The translations under genes were made by a program, and so were the position numbers. From NCBI GenBank assembly GCA_951406725.2, contig OX597815.1:66836001-66900000 (forward strand): DNA of 64,000 bases, written 5' to 3'. Within the stretch, counting starts at the first letter, position 1. Each line of letters begins with the position of its first letter. Below are positions 44,825 to 64,000 of this stretch, in pieces. Origin of the DNA: Octopus vulgaris. Lineage: Eukaryota. A model generated the notes under the pieces. That model saw only the letters and a list, made by a program, of their open reading frames with translations. It was not told the DNA's origin and made no database searches.

Positions 44825-45935
44825 TTAGGGTGTTTAGAAAGTAATTTCATTTTACCAGAAATTAATGCAAACTATGTTCATCTGAATAGTTTTAAGCAAG
44901 AATGTAATCACCATCGTTTTCAATGACAGCAACCCAATGGGAAAGTAACTTTTTTATGCCATTCAAAGAAACCAATTTCTTTTCTGGAAAAAAGTCTGAA
45001 AGACATTTCAACTTTCTCACTTTCCTGAATGTTTTGCTTCTTATAAAAGATTCTAGTAATTGAAACCAATGGAAATCTGTAAGTTCTAAGTAAGGTGAGT
45101 ATGTAGAAGAATTTCTTATCCTAATGATCTTATTTTTTTCTTGGGTTTGTGGCCATGCATTGTCATGCTGGAGAATAACACTTCTGTTTACCAAAGCTGG
45201 TTGCTTTTGATGTAATTTTTCATTTATACAATCAAGTCGTTGGCAGTAGATATCTGCATTGATGGTCGTTCCATGTTCCAGTAGCTCATAATGGATAATA
45301 CCTTTCGTGACCCAAACACAGAGCAAGGATTTTTGTGGACAGAATTCTAGATTTGGTGTTGGCACTGCCCCCTCATATGATAACCATTGCCTTCTTTGTT
45401 TTCTGTTGTGATGAAAAACCCATTTTACATCACCTGTAGCAATCCACTGCAGCAACGACAGAATGTTATTCCTGGATAGAAGATTGCTGCAGATGGTGGA
45501 ACATTATTCAGTCTCTGGTGCTTTGACATGGATCTGATACAATAGTCTCATTCAAAAGGTTGTCATTCAGAGTGGGTCATCTTCCAGAGCAAGGCTTGTC
45601 GGATATATCACAATCATCAACTTTAAGCCTTTTAAACCACAGCTGACATGTACAAGCTTTCACTGCATCTGGATACACTTCACAAATGTTTATTATTACT
45701 TCTGTAGTGGTACTTTTCTTTTGAAACTCATACCGCAAGCAGTGGTGAATATGTTGTTTCATAAAGTTCTTATCCTCCACGGGGTTAATTACTGAAATAA
45801 CTATGAACGACACACTGTGGGATAGAAATGATATACTATTTCTAGATCTCACTCATCTGGCCTTGGCTCTGATGTGGTTGTTTGGTTCATATTTCATTGC
45901 TGTGAAAAAATGCAATTACTTTCCGAAGACCCTAA
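44825..45935 (-). mobile_element. Mariner transposon, decayed (second family)
   Basis: TIRs ttagggtgtttagaaagtaatt / aattactttccgaagaccctaa. Motifs TGDVKW, LQHDNA and YSPYLELTDF, plus an HTH-region ORF at 45577-45852. Confidence 0.92.
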
Positions 45936-50900: not shown

Positions 50901-51525
50901 CCAATACTTGTAGGCTACTCCCCTCTGTGTATTTCAAATAACCTGAACCTCATAGAAACAAACATTAAAAACAACATACCATCGGTTCTATTTTCATCTC
51001 CAAATTTTGCAGAAGCTGTTGTATGTAGAAAAATTTTTAATATTGCTTTTACAATAAGAAGTAAACTTAAAATATGATACAAAAGGCAAATAGCAAAACA
51101 ATAACTTGTTGGCCTCATCTTTTACTTGTTTCAGCCATTGGACTGCAATCATCGTGGGGAATTGCCTTGAAAGGTTTAGTTAAACAAATCAACTCCAGTA
51201 CTTAATTTAAAGTCTGGTACTTATTCTTACAGTGTCAATAGCTGAACTGCTAAGTTACAGGAATGTAAACAAATAGGTGCAGGCATGGCTGTGTGGTAAG
51301 AATCTTAGTTCTCAACCACATGGTTCTGGGTTCAGTCCCACTGCAAGGAACCTTGGGCAAGTGTCCTCTACTATAATCTTGGGCTGACCAAAGCCTTGTG
51401 AGTAGATTTGGTAGATGGAAACTGAAAGAAGCTTGAGTAACTATATAAAATTTTGTTGTAATAATTACTGCTTTATATTTTTAGAATGTGCTGCTTTCTG
51501 ATATATGTTTTTTTTATTAACTGAC

Positions 51526-51560
<35 letters not shown>

Positions 51561-54495
51561 CCCGACAACCAGTGCTGGTGTGTTTGTGTCCCCATAACTT
51601 AGTGATTAGGCAAAAGAGACCGATAGAATAAGTACCACTTCTTAAAAAAGAAAAGTATTGGGATCGATTCATTTGCCTAATTATTCAAGGCAGTACCCCA
51701 GCATAGCCGCAGTTTAATGAGTGAAACAAGCTAAGGATAAAATCAAAACTGATTGCTAAGTGGTGGTGGGGACAAGCACAAACACAAAACCACTCACAAA
51801 GCATTGATCATCTGGTATTATAGTAAAAGATACTTGCCCAAGGCGCTACTCAGTGGGACTGAACTAGAAACCATCTGGTTGTCAAGTAAGCTTCTAATCA
51901 CACAGCTATGTCTGCACCTATAACCACACAGCCAGGCCAGTCAACCCCCTCCCACCAAAAAAACTCCCAACAAACAAACAAGTAAACAAAAATCGTATTG
52001 ATATTTTATTTTAATGGCCTTCTTTATAGTTCAAAAGTGAAAATATTTTCAAATAATTAAATCATTTTGTTCTTCAAATTTGATGATGCTTTCTCTAAGA
52101 AAGAAAGTATATTAGAAATTTTAGAAACTAAAACAAAGGTTTTAAGAAGGCAGATAGAACAATGCCATACCGCTATAAGAAAAAGAATCAAGTTTTCTCT
52201 TTCAATAAAAGTAACAACAAAGATCAGACACTAGCATTGGATTTTGATGCATGATTATAGTATAGAACATGACATATTTTTGCTTTCAAATATATATTGA
52301 TAAACTGTGTATATCCAAGGAGGACTTTTGTTGAATAAGCTTAGCAACCAATTTTAAAAGCACTGGGAATATCTACTGATCTACTGTATTATGCTTACAT
52401 TTTTCTTCATAGCAACTGGACAGATACAACCCAAACAGCTTAATAATGTGAATCAATAAAGAGGATTATTAATATCATGAAAAAAATTGACCTAATCTTT
52501 TCCATTAGAAATATTATAGAGCGATAACTTAATATTAATGAATATACATATGATATATATATAATAACAACAATAATCCTTGGATGGAATTTATAAACAT
52601 TTATTGCATCGCTACACATGTTTCCATGAATCACAACTCTTAAGATCACAGTATGTATTTCTGGGATGATTACAGTGTGGACCATAATATGGGGGCATCT
52701 GGTTGATCATGATGATTGTATATTCAAAACATTTCCCAATAAACAAATTTAAAAAATGTGATACAGGCATAGCTGTGTGGTTATGAAGTTTGCTTTCTAA
52801 CTACATGGTTTTGAGTTCAGCACTACTGTGTGGTACCTTAGGCAAGTTTCTCCTACCTTCTACTTTAGATCTGGATGGATCAAAGTTGATCTGATAGACA
52901 GGAACTGAAAGAAACTCAGTGTTTGTGTAAGTGTGTGTATGCATGTTTCCTAGTCTTGACACTGCTTGTTTGACAGTGACACACATTCACAACAATTATA
53001 CAGTGCTATTCATTATTTCCAATAATCAGGACACTACTTCAATAAAACTCCATCTGACCCATGCCAGCATGAAAAAGTGGACCTTGGAATGATGACAACA
53101 ATGATATAGGTAGATTTTAAAAATATTTTTAGCAAGAGATTTAACTCATTAATTAGGACCTTTTCAGTTTCTACAAACATCCTTCTGAGGAAGTCTTATA
53201 GTATAACTACTTACAATGTAGTGATATTTCATGTTGTCATGGTTATTTACTTTCAGACAAATAGATTTAAATGATTGGTATAGAGGGGAGGAGGAGGTGT
53301 GAGATATTCATTTCTATGCAACAGGAGCCATTTATTGAAGTAGTATAGATTTGAAGATCATTTTACAATGCTGCCTATGCAATAAAGACACACACAATTA
53401 AAAAGAGATTTTAAGATTAATAGCAGTGTTTTAATTCTGAGTAAAATCAGTGAAGCAAAAATTATTTGGTACAAATCATAGTTCAATAATAATATGGGAG
53501 AAGATGTGTGTGTGTGTGTGTGTACATACACACACATTGTGATAGTCTATGCTCTAATTTTATAGAGTTCTTCAAGCACAGATAATTATAATTAATGAAC
53601 AGAAAAAACTTAAAGAAATAAAGCAAAAATAAAAAAAAATAATTTAGATTTAGATTTTAGCTAAATTTAATACTCTTGAGGTTTTGGAAGATGAGTAGCT
53701 GAAGGATATAAGATGTTCACATCATATTCTGATTAACCACTGCCAAACAGTCTTGTATTCTTAGGCAAGGCACATTACTCTACCTTCAACTATAAATAGA
53801 TATTGTCTGACTGTTGAGTAAAGGTTAGTATCAGAAAACTAAACATCTGCATAAACACAATAATTCCACCCATACTTACTGATGTAGCAAACAAATTTAA
53901 TGTGATACACTTGCATATAGAATTTTGAGGTGCAGCCATGGCTGTGTGGTTAAAAAGATTACTTTGGAACCACATGGTTTGGGTTCAGTTTCACTGTGTG
54001 GCAACTTGTGCATGACAGCCCCAAGTTGGCTAACAGATGGAAACTATAAAGAAGCCAGATGTATCCGCCCGTCCATATCTTTGACATTTGCATGCTGATT
54101 GTAGACGAAGTCTTTGTTCATAAAAACAAAAAAAAAAAAACCTATACCATTTGCCTGCAATCTTCTATGAAAACATGACCAGTTGTAGCTGTTTCTGTTC
54201 AAAAGACTAGAAGGCATATTAACCATGATTACAAACAGGTGATAGGAAGAACATGCAGCCATAGAAAATCTACTGCAACAAGTTTCATTTGACCCATGCA
54301 AGCATGTGAAAATGATGATAATGATAAACTAATAACAGTAAATGACTGTGCATACTAGGCTTGATGATAGGTAAAAAAGTAAAAGAACACAACACACATT
54401 GAGAAAGAATCACAGAGACTGAGAAAGAGGGGAGGGAGTGATGTCAAAATAGTTATGAGAGGAGTTACACAAATGAGAAATTTGTTTCATTTTAA

Positions 54496-55554: not shown

Positions 55555-56958
55555 TTAAGGTAAATATTTTTCTTTTGAAAATTATATTTATTTTATAATT
55601 TTGATAAAAGTTAAATTATAATCGTTGTATGTATAACATATTTCCTGATATTACCCATGGTGGCAAAAGTATGCTTCTAAAGTTACCCATCATATGATGG
55701 GTAACACTAATAATAGAATGAAAACAAACACAACTTTAAAAAATAAAATACAAGTTGGGCTATTGTAAGCAAAGTTTTGCATTATGGTCATTAAAAGAAG
55801 ACAAGAGGAATGACTATAATGTAATAGTTCAAGAGAGTATTGTAGTTGAACGTATGTTTGGGGAGATGCTAGGACAAAGATAATTTTTTCTGGTTTAATA
55901 GTACTAAATGAAAGAGTGTGGCCTTATTGCTCTCATGATTCTAAGATTGTGGTTTGATTCCTGGGCTGGGCAGTGTATTGTGTTCTTGAGCAAAACATTT
56001 CAATTCATGTTGTTCCAGTTCATTCAGCTGTAAATGAATTTCAGCAATAGCTGGGATGTTGATCCTGTGACTGACTGGAGTCCCATTCAGGAGGGAGTGT
56101 TGTAATCTTAGTCATTTATATGCTGTGGAAACCAGGCTGAGCTCTGGCCTTATGAGTACGAGGATTCAAGACAGACCAAATCTAAGTAAGTTTAATACTA
56201 ATAGGTTTATTTCCATATGTATTTGGTTTGTGTGTCCCCCCTATCTGTATATGCAAGTAGTGTGAGTAGTGTTCTATGTAAGTGCAAAACCTATTTCTGA
56301 GACTTTTTCTCAAAGTTAAAGTAAATATAGTTATAAAGATTATCCCCAAACTAAGAAGTTCAGGCAACTTACAGAATTCTAAGCAAGTTCTATAATGGAA
56401 TGAGATAATATTTGTTCAAGATCTTCACTACAAAACTATATAAGAGTAACTAGAAAATGAATCAGTGTCTAAAAGATATTTAAACTGAAGTTTGATCAAG
56501 GTTCACATGTTGACAAACTAGTTCTAAATAGAACAAAAATTTTATTTTTATAAATCAAATACAAATGAGAGAGAGAGAAAGAAATAGAGAGATTGATTGA
56601 TTGATTGATTCAGAGTATTAATATAACAGTGTTGGAAGTGAAGGTGATAGGTCACTAGTTGATAAAGTTAGATAGATTATCCTTGACAATGGCACACACA
56701 ATGTAGCTTATATAAAATAGGGTTAATCATTAGAACAATTGAAGAGTTGAACCTAGATCTGAAGTACATTGTTTAAGGGCAATGAAAGAGACACCCTTAA
56801 AACTGGAGAAGTTTTTAGTCTTGGTGACTAATCTGTGTGTACTTAATAGTAGACAAGTGGAATGGAGGAGCATGTGTGTGTGTGTGTATTATATGAAGCT
56901 AAAAAAAGGTAGAAGTCTCCTTATAGAGACATCTTTGACACAGAATGGTGATCATTAA

Positions 56959-57179
56959 CCCTTTTGTTACCAACCCGGCTGAAACCGGCTCTGGCTCTGT
57001 TGTACAAATGTCTTGTTTTCTTAATGTTTCAATTAAAATCTTCCACCAAACCTTATTCACAATTTATGTTCCTGATACAAGCTTAATGATAACTAAGTTA
57101 TTTTACTAAATTCTTTGTTATATTTAAAGTAATTGAAAGAAATACAGAACATCTCAAAATAAATAAAGTAACGAAAGGA
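56959..57179. mobile_element. piggyBac-type MITE (~220 bp)
   Basis: TTAA TSD and the same TIR as the element at 54496. Confidence 0.9.
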
Positions 57180-57642
57180 TTAAGAGGGTCCTACAAAGAA
57201 GGTGGAGACCCTTTCAGCAAATAATCTAGAACATCAGATAATTTGCAAGCTGCACATTGCAGGAAGGTGTCTCGTTTATTATATCTTTAGCTTTTACTTG
57301 TTTTAGTTTCTGAACTGTGGTCATGCAGGGGCATCACCTTCAGGGATTTAGTCAAACAAATTGACTTCAATACTAATCTTTACATCTGGTGTATTTGTAA
57401 TATGTATACACACACATTCAAACTATCAGTCCCTTTTGCCAAACTGTTAGGTTACATGGATGTAAACAAACCAACATCAGCTATCAAGTGATGATCTCTC
57501 TCTCTCTCTCACACACACTTATCTATGTATATATGACAAATTTCCAGTTTCTGGCCTGGGAATATAGTTGAAGACACTTGCTCAATTTGATGTGAAGTGG
57601 GAATGAACTTGAAACCATGTGGTTGCAAAATGAGTTTCTTAA

Positions 57643-57862
57643 CCCTTTCGTTACCAACCCAGCTGAAACCGGCTCTGGTTCTGAGTACAAATGTCTTGTT
57701 TTCATAAGTTTTGAATTAAAATCTTCCACCAAACCTCAGTCACAATTGATGTTCCTAACACTAGCTGAATGATAACTAAGATATTTTACTAAATTCTTTG
57801 TTATATTTAAAATTAATTCAAAGAAACACAGAGCATCTCAAAATAAATAAGTAACGAAAGGG
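57643..57862. mobile_element. piggyBac-type MITE (~220 bp) inserted into a SINE head
   Basis: TTAA|CCCTTTCGTTAC...GTAACGAAAGGG|TTAA; highly similar to 56959-57179. Confidence 0.92.
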
Positions 57863-57938
57863 TTAAACAATCATGCTTGTACCTTATTAATTTTCTTCCT
57901 AAAAACCTCCAGCTTGGTTATTTTTTTATTTTTTTTTT

Positions 57939-58154: not shown

Positions 58155-60897
58155 AAATTATTAATTAGATATTAACATAATCAACTGTCCCTATTTTTTT
58201 TTTTAAACTTCTTATTACACATTACTGCAATATAGATAAGGTCAACTAATGATGCATTCTCTGATTGTCTGATTTACTATTTTAAAACTATAAAACCAGA
58301 AATATATAATATTGATTAGATTAATATGGCATGCTAAATATACTTTCCTTACTACAACAGACAATTTTTTCCTTATAATCACTTGCTCGGTTCTCAAGTG
58401 ATTAAAATATTCATTTGTATTACCCAGTACCTCATAATGTCACTGTCCAAAGTTTATTACAACAGCTAGGGTTTTAATTTTCTAAATGTATTCAGAGCTC
58501 TCCCAATTAAGTAACCACATGGTTCTGGGTTCAGTCCCTCTGCATGGTGTCTTGGGCAAGTGTCTCCCACTATAGTCACAGCCTTGTGAGTGGATTTGGT
58601 AGACAGAAACTGAAAAGAAGCCCATCATGTATATGTCTATATTTGTGTGTGTCTTTTCTTTTTAAGCCTGGTATTTATTTTACTGGTCTCTTTTGTCAAA
58701 CTGCTAAGTTATGGGGACATAAACATACCGGCTTTGGTTGTCAAGTGGCGGGTGGGAGAAACACAAAGACACACACATGCATAAATACAAACTAAACACA
58801 TGGGCTACTTTCAGTTTTTGTCAACCAAATCCATACACATATCCGCCCGAGGCTATAGAAGACACTTGCCCAAGAGGCACACAGTGAGACTGAACTCAGA
58901 ACCATGTGGTTGGGAAGCAAACTTTTTAACACAAAGTCAAGCCTGCACATATGGAAATGAAAAAAAAATCCAAATCTTTTTAATAAAATTTAAATTGAAT
59001 TGAATGAGATATTAAATATGCATGCCTGATCACTGAACAACAGGAATTTTTAATAAATTAGATGCACATTTGACAAAAACTTTTGCTGAATTTTTGTATC
59101 TCCAATGAGAAGCTGGTTAAACCAGTCTCAGTTATAATTATTAAAGACAGAACTAATTCAATTTAAATGTGCCCCAAAGCTAAGAATTAAGGATATTTTA
59201 TAAAATTTATAGAAGACAAGCTTCAACACTCAATCACATCTCCATTACCAAAGAAGTATAATTTATTATATTTACAGGAGTCAGCTCTCAATGTGCAATT
59301 CAACCCCTGCCCTCTATCACAGCTAAAATTTGTGAAATGATTAACCGAAACTCCCTAAATATTCAAACCACCATGTTCCAGAATGGCCTTAGCCATGATG
59401 GTTAAATCAAAGTAAAGAACCTAAGTATCTATGCATGCACTTGATCTGCAGGAATTAACAACCAAATCCTCCCACTGAGAGAGAGAAAAAGAAGGTTGGT
59501 GGTGGTGCAAGCATGGCTGTGTGGTTAAGTCTCGTATTTTTTGTATTCATTGACATTGATATTTTTATGCATTCTTTCTTTTTTTACTTCCATAATATTG
59601 TAACCCATATGATAATAATTATTATAATTTCACCTATGGTGAAATTTAGCATGGTGGAATTTACTGGTCACCCAGCTCTTTTACTATAGCCCCGGGACAG
59701 CCAGTGCCATATGAGAGGATTTGGTACATTAAACTCTTCTATCCTTGAAGAGATGATTCATTTGTTATTTTGTTGTTTAGGAACTAAACCTCTATTACTA
59801 GCAAAAAAAGAAGAAGAAAAAACAGAGGGGGGGGAATAAAAAGAGAATAAAGTCAAGATGGTCCATTCTTGTAAGAGAAACAAATATTAAAATATTGATG
59901 ATGATGGATAACAACAACAATTTAGGCATAAAACCAAACACTTTTAAGAGAGGGGATGTACCATCAATCCCAGTATTTGACTGGTATTTTATTTTAACCT
60001 TGAAAGAATGAAAAGCATAGCTGAAACAAGTACAGCAATGCATTTTTTCTGACACTAATGATTCTACCAGCAACAATAATAATAATAGGATGTTACATTC
60101 AACAAATGGTGACATGAAAAATCAGCACCATTGTTGAATTACTGATGGTTTGGAATTAGATTACACATAAACTGAAAAGCTAAATTCATTTTCAAGTTAT
60201 GCAACATAATTTCCATGTCCATATAAGCCATTGATCTTTACATGCTCACAGTGGTATTAATGAATAACTGAAATGGTTTTGAGTTGAAGATTGTACAGGA
60301 GTAGTGTCTAGAACTTACAAGACGACAGAATGAAATAGCTACATATCATCTCTTAGTAATTGATGTTAATGTAGTAACTTAAAACATCCATTTAAGGAGG
60401 CAAAAAAAACTACAATATTGTTTTCAAATTTTGGTACAAGGCCAGGGAATTTCAGAGAAGTTGATTAGATTGACTCCAGTGCTCAACTGATACTTATTTC
60501 ATTGACCTTGAGAAGATGAAAGGCAAAACTGATCTCAGCAGAATTTAAACTGAGAATGTGAAGACAGATGAAATAGTAAGCATTTTGCCTTTTATGCTAA
60601 TGGTCCGGCTAGCTTGCTGCTTTACAAAAAGGCTGTAATATCAAGATAACAGGTGGGGAGCTGACAAAATGAGTGCCATTTCTTCCAGCTCTTTACATTT
60701 TGAGTCCAAATCCCACTGAAATCAACTTTGCCTTTCATCCCTGTGAGGTTGATAAAATAAAGTACCATCAAACCAGGGCTGATGTAATGAACTTGACCCT
60801 CATCTCAAAACTGTTGGCTTTGAACCCAGCAGAGAGTATGTTGTGATCTTGGTGATATATGTATATATGTGTATGTGTATGTGTGTGTGTGTGTGTG

Positions 60898-61217: not shown

Positions 61218-61302
61218 GAGAGAGAGAATATATAAGTAATAAAAATCAGTTCTATATTAAGAGATGAGGAATTATGTACATCATTTACATTCGTTTGTTG
61301 TT

Positions 61303-61348
61303 AACACAACGTTTTGGCTGATATACCCTCCAGCCTTCTTCAGGTGTC
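61303..61348 (-). ncRNA. Hammerhead ribozyme motif in pLTR (core G mutated)
   Basis: GACAC-CTGAAGA-a-GGCTG-gagggtatat-CAGCC-AAAAC-GTT-GTGTT. Confidence 0.6.
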
Positions 61349-61549
61349 TTGAGGAAATTTCGAACCTGGGTTCTCATTCCTAAGGTATTTTTCGATATTA
61401 TTATTATTATTACTATTGTTAGTGTTCAGGTCACTGCTTGGAATCGAACTCGGAATCATGGGGTTAGTAGTTTGCCCTCTTAACCACTATGCCATATGCC
61501 TGTGGGCAATTATGGAGTGAATTTTAGGGCTTATAAATCTAATATATTT

Positions 61550-62020
61550 CTATCCTTCCTTAATACCCATTCCCATATGCTGCTCATATCTGCACTCGGT
61601 CTGCTTAGGATGTTGTTGTGTCCTAGCATATGTGCTGCTGCTTTTTAGTTTTCGTATTTTCCAGTGGTGTTCTCTGTCTATTATTTTAACTTCATCCCAC
61701 AGGGGCAGGTGGTCTCCATTTATCCATACATGATCAGCTATACCCAATTTATCAATATCTCCTCATATCACAGCTTTGCGATGTTTGTCTACCCTTATTT
61801 TGAGGGGGCGGCATGTTTCACCTTTGTATAACCTACCACAGCTGCATGGGATGGAGTACACGCAGTCTTTGGTCATATTCTCTTCTATTGGTGGTTTTAT
61901 TTGAAGGAGATACTTGCGAAGTGTTGTATTACTCTTGAATACTGTCCTGATGTCATATGGGTCGCATATCTTTTGTATCTTTTCGGAGAGTCCTTTCACA
62001 TAGGGTAGACAGACTGTGGA
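61550..62020 (-). pseudogene. Penelope GIY-YIG endonuclease fragment
   Basis: Reads LPYVKGLSEKI...CVYSIPCSCGRLYKGETCRPLKIRVDKH...IADHVW. Confidence 0.92.
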
Positions 62021-62111
62021 CAGATATGAGCAGCATATGGGAACCGGTATTAAGGATGGATAAAAATATATTAGATTTATAAGCCCTAAAATTCACCCCA
62101 TAATTGCCCAC

Positions 62112-62184
62112 GGGCATATGGCATAGTGGTTAAGAGCGTGGCCTACTAACCCCAAGATTCTGAGTTTGATTCCAAGCAGTGACC
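62112..62184 (+). promoter_or_regulatory. tRNA-like Pol III internal promoter in pLTR (mirror copy at about 61429-61500, minus strand)
   Basis: A box TGGCATAGTGG; B box GTTTGATTCC (GTTCGATTCC in the mirror copy); tRNA-like spacing. Confidence 0.65.
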
Positions 62185-62195
62185 TGAACACTAAC

Positions 62196-62226
<31 letters not shown>

Positions 62227-62269
62227 TCAAAAAATACCTTAGGAATGAGAACCCAGGTTTGCAATTTCC

Positions 62270-62305
62270 CTGAAGAAGGCTGCAGGGTATATCAGCCGAA
62301 ACGTT
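62270..62305 (+). ncRNA. Hammerhead ribozyme core in the second pLTR (helix I arms missing)
   Basis: CTGAAGA-a-GGCTG-cagggtatat-CAGCC-GAAAC-GTT. Confidence 0.6.
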
Positions 62306-64000
62306 AACAACAAACAAGAGTAGGACAAATATTCGTTGACTGTAAATAATGTAATAAAAATCAATATTTTAGAAATAAGGGTATGACAGTAAATATAACT
62401 AGAGTACAAAATCTACAAATGCAAGCATTGTATAAAATAACTTTTATATTGAGTTAGTTGAAACAGCCACTTATGTCAATATGACACGAATACAGAATAA
62501 ACAGAAACTAGTGAGGCATTAATTTATTGTTAGTTAATAAATAGCTGAACTAAAACATGTCAGGCTCAAAATAAGAATTATCATTGCCAGAAGTGGCTTT
62601 TGTTTTATTTTTACTATGTTGCAAAAAGTTGAAGAATATCAATATTACATAAGTTTTGGACAAGTAAAACATCATACTGGTAAGGGATAATTGAAAACCA
62701 ATATATAAATTTACAGGTAAATAATTTGAATTATACACACATTATATATATATATATATATATACATATGCACATACCAGTTTTCAAGTGGACAAAGTAG
62801 ATCAAAATTTTACCAGTGAATCAAGTGTGGTTATCTTCAGAAGCAAACAATATTTAAAAATTTGTCAAGAAAAAAAAGGCATCATTTTTGATATCTGACA
62901 AGTAAATCTGAATAATTATGAAAGTAAGCAAAAAGTTTTATCCTTCTATGTTAATTTATTCTGGTTCTTATTACACAAAAGTGGAAGCAAAAACCATATA
63001 GAATGAATAAAAAGACTGCATTATACAATATATGGTCTCTGGTTTGAAATATTTCCAGTAAAATAAGAGCAGAGATGATAGTCTTAAATCCGAGACTTTC
63101 ACTATTTAAAACCGTAAAAAAGTTAATTGCTTATTAATTAGTGTATAGGAAACTAATCTAAATAGTAGATGTATGCATCAAACTCTTTTGAGATTGTGAA
63201 ATTTAAAAGGAAAAACAGAATTATAAATTAAAAAATAAATAAAATAAGGAGGGATTGATTGATGTTCAGTGTCTGTATGTAAAATATGGACAGACAGTAT
63301 TCCGGAAGACTGAAGTTAAAGGAAAGAATTGAGTAAAGTATTTAGAGTAAGGTCTAGGAAGTAAGAAAAGGAAGGTGAGGTAGAGCAGAGAAACTGGTAG
63401 GACAAGTGAATGTGAGTGGTAACAGTAGGAGTGGTGGCTATTGTAATAGCAATAAGGAGTAACAAAACATCTGAAAGTTAATGGTTGAATCTTTGCCAAT
63501 CAGTCAAATAAATGGTCTTCTTTTGATTCAGTCTTGAATGTTAAATGTGTGAAGTAACACATTCTTATACATAGATGTGAGAATACTCTAGTGTTGGTCT
63601 ATCTGAGGTTTGTAGTGCATTAGCAACTGATCAGGACTGCGGTATTTTTTGGTACCAAGTAGGAATCCTTGTATTTGAGATGTAGTTTTGGTAATGTTAT
63701 ATCATGATGCAAAGATAATCTAAAGGTTTCTGTTTATGGATTTGTGAACTGGTTATGTTATATGTAGATTGGAAGTTACTGGGTGTCTTTACTGGTGCTG
63801 ATGGCATTAAGGGTATCCAGCCACGGAAGCCACACCAAAGCTGACATTGGGCTTGATATAGCTCTGAGGCTTGCCGGATCCTGTCAAACCAGCTAACCCA
63901 TGAAAGCATGAAAAACTGATGTTAAATAATTAAAAATAGTTTTTTTTCCCTGAACAGTTTACTGTTTATTTTAATCAAGGATTAAAGAGATACAATCACT

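Follow-up and report, generated by a model that had tools for sequence, protein, structure and literature searches.

A tRNA-derived cassette in the end repeats of an octopus Penelope/Poseidon-type retrotransposon: a candidate Pol III promoter for a coding element

We describe an abundant Penelope/Poseidon-type retrotransposon of the octopus, whose end repeats carry a tRNA-derived cassette ahead of an (AAT)n tract and a minimal hammerhead ribozyme. On balance, this cassette is likely to be the element's own Pol III promoter for a long, mostly uncut mRNA, with the short copies of the family as run-off products. A more ambitious version of this reading is quite possible, though we would stop short of calling it probable: the family would be an autonomous coding retrotransposon with a 2.9-kb Pol III mRNA made from a captured tRNA promoter and translated uncapped, a design reached separately in the lineage of a distant relative (L311), and its thousands of SINE-like run-off cDNAs would map the start of the transcript.

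The copy in the window and its family

The stretch of DNA analysed here (the window) comprises 64,000 nucleotides from Octopus vulgaris. The element at 61249-62350 is a broken, truncated and dead copy of a 2.7-kb retrotransposon, and it consists of two arms in opposite orientation with a mean column identity of 89% (Table 1). In each arm the 73-nt cassette begins about 30 nt past the ORF stop and is followed by (AAT)n, the hammerhead core lying 85-86 nt past the cassette end. The initial annotation had read a tRNA-like A/B-box cassette, an AAT tract and a hammerhead in both inverted pseudo-LTRs: this layout is borne out in each arm, but it had missed that both hammerheads are damaged and that the B box of the right arm is changed.

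Table 1. Features of the Penelope/Poseidon-type copy and its flanks (window positions)
Feature	Position	Strand	Details
Target-site duplication, left	61236..61248	+	13 bp, identical to 62351-62363
PLE tail, left arm only: first ~40 nt of the next unit's body	61249..61288	-	95% to family-body positions 1-43; tandem junctions
Left-arm hammerhead of minimal type I, with stem I, the core, an extra A, a 5-bp stem II and a palindromic ACGU	61303..61348	-	A replaces core G12, predicted to be inactive; cut site predicted after 61308
ATG 5' of the left hammerhead	61375..61377	-	Family frame continues via ribozyme and tail into the next unit's ORF
(AAT)n tract, left arm	61397..61420	-	
tRNA-derived cassette, left arm	61429..61501	-	A box 61484-61494 and B box 61440-61451, both intact
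Cassette start: short palindrome with a 6-7-nt leader	61497..61508	-	Putative RNA 5' end and fold-back point of the family
3' end of PLE ORF, GIY-YIG endonuclease region	61531..62023	-	CVYSI at 61850-61864; 92% to family majority sequence; one premature stop, one frameshift; ORF stop at 61531-61533
Second arm, inverted: end of the ORF, then cassette, (AAT)n and hammerhead, without a tail	62010..62350	+	
tRNA-derived cassette, right arm	62112..62184	+	A box 62119-62129; B box 62162-62173 with C-to-T change
(AAT)n tract, right arm	62193..62225	+	
Hammerhead core and stem II, right arm	62270..62305	+	Both stem I strands deleted; predicted inactive
Target-site duplication, right	62351..62363	+	13 bp, direct repeat of the left copy

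Elsewhere the window holds other repeats: an open frame of 203 codons (44892-45503, minus strand), which we take to resemble the C-terminal part of a mariner transposase; a MITE-like pair of about 220 bp with inverted ends, its members about 91% alike (56955-57170 and 57639-57870); and another SINE-like family with many copies in both orientations (51275-51433, 52757-52916, 58513-58621, 58882-58952 and more).

A 25-nt hammerhead pattern of the family has 6590 exact matches in the 2.8-Gb genome, its reversed control having none. The family repeat was found in 20 sequencing runs from 9 studies with six organism codes, the 20 listed runs including no RNA run, and a fragment of the family protein is 70% identical to one annotated in Octopus sinensis. 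The majority sequence, which was made from fetched copies with windowed polishing, measures 2713 nt and has a single ORF of 798 open codons with the motifs YVDD (at 499) and VYSIP/LYKGE (at 690/700). The family matches the Pfam RVT_1 domain (E 2e-10); GIY-YIG was not detected by Pfam on the broken pieces from the window, and a relative at 46% carries the source name GIY-YIG endonuclease. The family thereby presents the organization of a PLE: a single ORF with an RT followed by a C-terminal GIY-YIG domain, and partial-tandem or inverted pseudo-LTRs with a 30-40-bp tail. Direct upstream repeats are present in the copies L072, L078, L083, L090, L092 and L093, which identifies the tail as the beginning of the following unit; an inverted part is seen in 59 of 90 insertions taken from the first 100 of the 6590 listed hammerhead matches. 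The ORF, repeats, tail and ribozyme would place the family in the Penelope/Poseidon type, the clade being named from domain order and published descriptions. In the majority sequence, a frame is open from an ATG about 18 nt past (AAT)n, via the ribozyme and the tail, into the ORF; hence, the start codon would lie 5' of the cut site. Looking for further hammerhead families, or querying with a distant PLE protein, brought up this same family almost exclusively; no cassette-free sister family was found that could act as an in-genome control.

The tRNA-derived cassette and the 5' ends of copies

Within the cassette, the A box lies at tRNA position 8 and is followed by a B box at tRNA-like spacing; both boxes are perfect in the majority sequence. 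Compared with 35 tRNA genes of the genome it scores 63, where 300 shuffles reach at most 48, and a tRNA profile matches it with 21.3 bits (E 7e-6). The best match among these 35 genes, which sample part of the isotypes, is tRNA-Arg(TCT), with 52 of 75 positions identical. By its boxes, their spacing and its tRNA ancestry, the cassette is a predicted type 2 Pol III promoter. It has no cloverleaf fold, and single-strand folds were no better than those of shuffles. ARAGORN and Rfam called neither a hammerhead nor a tRNA in the window, in better copies or in L311.

Copies found via endonuclease DNA alone show the cassette, whole or partial, in 24 of 29 cases other than the window copy; the five exceptions are two with a deletion reaching the ribozyme, two palindrome-to-(AAT)n joins and one that ends earlier. 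When 40 arms were picked on coding sequence and aligned through to the hammerhead, the cassette was full in 31 (one of which, L088, is a misalignment), partial in nine and absent in none. In these 40 long arms the A box is kept in 30, the B box in 15 and both in only 12. Conversely, among the first 30 listed matches to a cassette pattern, 27 run on into the hammerhead part and 25 are missing the upstream ORF end. The cassette is thus family-wide and not a free SINE; its wide presence and its linkage to the hammerhead part exclude a one-off SINE insertion, the outcome that the initial annotation had singled out for a check against the family consensus, and uphold its view that the cassette predates the insertion in the window.

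Past the ORF stop of L037 and L056 the palindrome is joined straight to (AAT)n and the cassette is missing; either the cassette was deleted there, or the joins preserve the site as it was prior to its arrival. Another element often follows the (AAT)n tract, as in L037, L046, L106, L108, L109 and L119 (SINE heads and, in L037, coding sequence that we take to resemble an R4/Dong-type LINE), so that the tract serves as an insertion target.

A comparable arrangement is found in L311, a distant metagenome PLE (38% protein identity) and one of 18 control loci with a hammerhead-like motif. Its 3' repeat (L311:2820-3025) follows the order of the octopus family: an A box, a B box 44 nt on, AAT triplets and then a minimal hammerhead, with an ATG directly ahead of it. 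The head scores 55 against the same tRNAs (shuffles at most 49), and an A and B box pair arises in 0.08% of shuffled 280-nt stretches. The tandem units of L311 are identical across 2055 nt, as befits a young element.

The 5' ends were mapped for 97 of the first 100 listed hammerhead matches, which amount to 90 insertions with a few segmental duplicates retained. Among the 57 insertions that reach the cassette, 45 end between -30 and +20 relative to its first base (30 of these between -10 and +5), and the other 12 extend further upstream. Upstream of -100 the rate is 12% per 50 nt (36 ends in 291 arm-windows of 50 nt). The ends cluster at -7..+5, the outer edge of the cluster being 13-14 nt before the A box, with a hairpin at the same spot as a confounding factor. 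At type 2 promoters Pol III starts 12-20 nt before the A box. Genome-wide counts of exact 24-mers show the same step, with 3293 at the cassette start and 914 at 40 nt upstream; after a rough correction for divergence, these correspond to about 8500 and 2100 copies. One copy, L078, has its 5' end at the cassette and carries the 5' part of the ORF.

The Poseidon RT of Anolis carolinensis is reported to start inside the ORF and to copy uncut RNA to its 5' end (PMC11167929); in the simplest reading, the peak marks an RNA 5' end about 13-14 nt before the A box. Trimming by RNase P as the origin of the peak was ranked low, since many ends keep the 6-7-nt leader and the acceptor stem is lost.

The short copies could in principle be a lineage of their own. 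Alleles at +63, +171 and +240 are, however, common to 96 short and 48 long arms, in sets not selected by likeness to the window, and none is private to the short ones. With both subfamily alleles in short as well as long arms, the two classes of copies have their sources in common. An apparent allele difference between short and long copies disappeared in the sets that were not picked by window likeness. Shared alleles and a head lying inside a coding element are not what is seen in an independent tRNA SINE lineage.

The proposed transcript and competing readings

The mechanism that we propose takes a partial-tandem element as its source. Pol III would start 6-7 nt ahead of the cassette in the upstream repeat and would transcribe the (AAT)n tract, the first ATG, a hammerhead left mostly uncut and an ORF free of TTTT; the product would be translated in a presumably cap-independent manner. 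The encoded RT would begin internally, about 120-150 nt into the ORF, as for Anolis Poseidon, and would copy back to the RNA 5' end, which would account for the abundant copies of 270-300 nt with their start at the cassette. These short copies would often be folded back at the palindrome of the cassette start, and longer copies, such as that at 61249-62350, would require a longer or jumped template. The initial annotation suggested that, in tandem copies, one unit could drive the next element, which agrees with the open frame, the absence of TTTT and the peak of 5' ends.

The sense strand of the majority sequence has no TTTT in its 2713 nt. Synonymous shuffles predict 2.7 (P(0)=0.035) and codon-order shuffles 3.1 (P 0.022), while an order-2 Markov model predicts 1.4 (P=0.24); individual family copies have 25 such runs in 54 kb. 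For comparison, 16 other PLE ORFs (at least 1200 nt long, from 78 metagenome loci, near-duplicates removed) have 97 runs in 29.4 kb against 87 expected, and one of the 16 has none. This one is L337, the closest relative fetched (48% over residues 134-542), in which 2.1 kb of ORF (L337:1724-3865) are without TTTT and the T-rich 3' UTR has no tRNA cassette. Given the Markov estimate and a TTTT-free relative that is devoid of the cassette, we take the lack of TTTT as a supporting argument rather than a strong one.

RNA-seq reads came from three runs of one study, about 6% of each mapped onto the copy L051 (7769-10972 reads each). They are equal in both directions, in libraries that are possibly unstranded; their depth doubles at the cassette start in parallel to the genomic copy profile, fold-back joints placed at the cassette start are frequent, and the three runs show no pile-up of read starts or ends on L051. 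Passive transcription of embedded copies would give such a pattern, which is evidence neither for nor against a Pol III RNA. An excess of A>G and T>C in the reads was considered as RNA editing and rejected, as CpG decay of the reference copy yields the same pattern.

The most serious competitor of a Pol III mRNA, though in our judgement an unlikely one, is that the cassette is a fossil short SINE (a tRNA head with an AAT tail) in the 3' UTR of the founder, transcribed by Pol II or read-through, and that the ends arise by cDNA fold-back at the palindrome. The head with its (AAT)n does resemble a simple SINE, and the ORF of L337 is free of TTTT without any cassette. Moreover, of the 24-nt cDNA hairpins within the 1 kb examined, the strongest (-4.6 kcal) is located at the cassette start; an inverted part is present in 35 of the 45 insertions that end at this point, and fold-back joints are frequent in the reads; fold-back can therefore add to the peak. 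Yet, insertions without an inverted part also end at the cassette start (10 of 13), and three upstream hairpins of -3.6 to -3.7 kcal have no end peak (4/33, 1/28 and 1/11). A fossil is also at odds with the perfect A and B boxes of the majority sequence and with the same layout in L311, and the head was not seen as a separate free family, given the 27 of 30 listed matches that are linked to the hammerhead part.

A still less probable option is that Pol III makes only short cassette RNAs of 260-400 nt, up to the first T-run, so that the element would have a built-in SINE mobilised by Penelope while its mRNA comes from another promoter. Such RNAs would agree with the roughly 3:1 ratio of short to long copies at the cassette, with the first T-run about 260 nt past the cassette start in both window arms and with the usual shortness of Pol III elements (PMC10886601). 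The only two TTTT runs in the 2.8-kb unit of L311 are 70 and 190 nt past the hammerhead, and this position soon after the ribozyme suits short RNAs too. (One of these two runs sits in a perfect hairpin like the histone stem-loop.) Against short RNAs, no allele is private to the short copies, a tandem source has no TTTT at which Pol III would halt, and L078 extends from the cassette into the ORF; furthermore, the Anolis Poseidon RT is reported to need the first 172 nt of the ORF (PMC11167929), whereas the short copies end at about 120-150 nt.

The ribozyme bears on a third alternative. A minimal type I hammerhead of the PLE kind is recognized by a CUGANGA/GAAA/NUH core, an extra base after A9, the G10.1-C11.1 pair, a palindromic 15.2-16.2 and stems I and II. 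The family majority sequence has all of these: its core is complete, stems I and II have 5 bp each and helix III is palindromic; the minimal PLE architecture assigned in the initial annotation therefore holds at the level of the family, but in neither window arm. Among 87 copies unselected for the ribozyme, 37 have an intact core and 25 retain the core, the stems and the ACGU palindrome; N7, the free position, is the site of the sole substitution polymorphism that is not of the CpG kind (58 T, 29 A), and both of its forms leave the frame open. Three nucleotides at the predicted cut site are missing, in frame, in 16-18 of the 87 copies, and a second count found short cut-site junctions in 12 of 96, in both subfamilies (window site 62298-62305); this loss may have been left by cleavage followed by rejoining, or may reflect slippage within a stretch rich in GT.

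The intact ribozymes, the confinement of change to N7 and the cut-site losses would all suit a Pol III transcript that self-cleaves to a ~190-nt RNA, a product envisaged by the initial annotation, or circularises in the manner of Sm-alpha or retrozymes, but we regard this as very improbable: the ribozyme has no helix III of its own, monomers of this minimal form were uncleaved and dimers poorly cleaved in vitro (PMC4209133), the main RT substrate of Anolis Poseidon is the uncut RNA (PMC11167929), family copies span the cut site and hold the uncut junction with 50-85 nt beyond, head-to-tail arrays are nearly absent (one close same-strand pair and six inverted pairs among the first 100 of the 6590 listed hammerheads), the three RNA-seq runs lack a read-end pile-up, and a cut would detach the first ATG from the ORF. 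Cleavage to a ~190-nt RNA may occur, but such an RNA is not the template behind the copies.

Relation to known elements and biological meaning

The octopus family is like the Penelope/Poseidon PLEs, such as Poseidon of Anolis (PMC11167929) and Penelope of Drosophila virilis (PMC2377424), in its single ORF with RT and C-terminal GIY-YIG, its partial-tandem and inverted repeats, tail, minimal hammerhead and start codon 5' of the cut, its 3' ends about 120-150 nt into the ORF and the expected location of a promoter in the repeat. Unlike in the published descriptions of these elements, a tRNA-derived A/B-box cassette and (AAT)n stand at the start of the octopus repeat: the mapped promoter of Penelope is described as internal, LINE-like and TATA-less, with a downstream promoter element and an intron (PMC2377424).

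The succession of a Pol III promoter and a type I hammerhead, with an upstream unit driving the next, is shared with the schistosome Sm-alpha and Sj-alpha repeats, which are reviewed as non-coding tandem repeats with a ribozyme shown to cleave (PMC6765202). The octopus unit, in contrast, is the end repeat of a coding element, its copies are dispersed or inverted and its ribozyme is of the minimal, dimer-dependent form. Animal non-LTR retrozymes are likewise short type I hammerhead units related to PLE repeats (PMC7229834; bioRxiv 10.64898/2026.07.22.740005); they are defined by head-to-tail arrays and circular RNA, whereas such non-coding arrays are nearly absent in the octopus family. With a single close same-strand pair among the first 100 of the 6590 listed hammerheads, and with short copies that share the alleles of the long ones, the derivation of a retrozyme-like SINE lineage suggested in the initial annotation finds no support here. 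A route from PLEs to retrozymes has already been argued in a 2026 preprint (bioRxiv 10.64898/2026.07.22.740005), in which a word search found none of 'tRNA', 'promoter' and 'pol III'.

A Pol III promoter derived from a small RNA and located in a terminal repeat, possibly acquired via SINE insertion, is also described for Cassandra, Helenus and Ajax (TRIMp3; PMC10886601). These are non-coding LTR elements of at most 1.3 kb, the coding partners of which are assumed to be transcribed by Pol II (PMC10886601), whereas the octopus family is itself coding. Ribozyme-aided cap-independent translation has been reported in viruses (PMC13725137); a cut in the octopus PLE, however, would remove the first ATG from the ORF. 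A literature search, with the repeat databases (Repbase, Dfam, SINEBase), subscription papers and supplements outside its scope, returned no report of a tRNA promoter in a PLE repeat.

The short form may already count among the octopus SINEs, such as OK, OR1 and OR2; a literature search on these names found nothing.

The usual view is that Pol III is confined to non-coding elements of small size and that coding retrotransposons depend on Pol II or a host promoter. If the reading favoured here is true, the octopus PLE, which is coding and would be driven by a tRNA promoter, provides a natural example of a Pol III RNA that is long, uncapped and translated. Two open questions on PLEs, namely how a repeat drives the next unit and what role a ribozyme has inside the start of an ORF, would become testable on a 300-nt fragment. 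The family would also show that a SINE-shaped repeat can arise within its own coding partner, and annotators may therefore list such repeats as separate SINEs.
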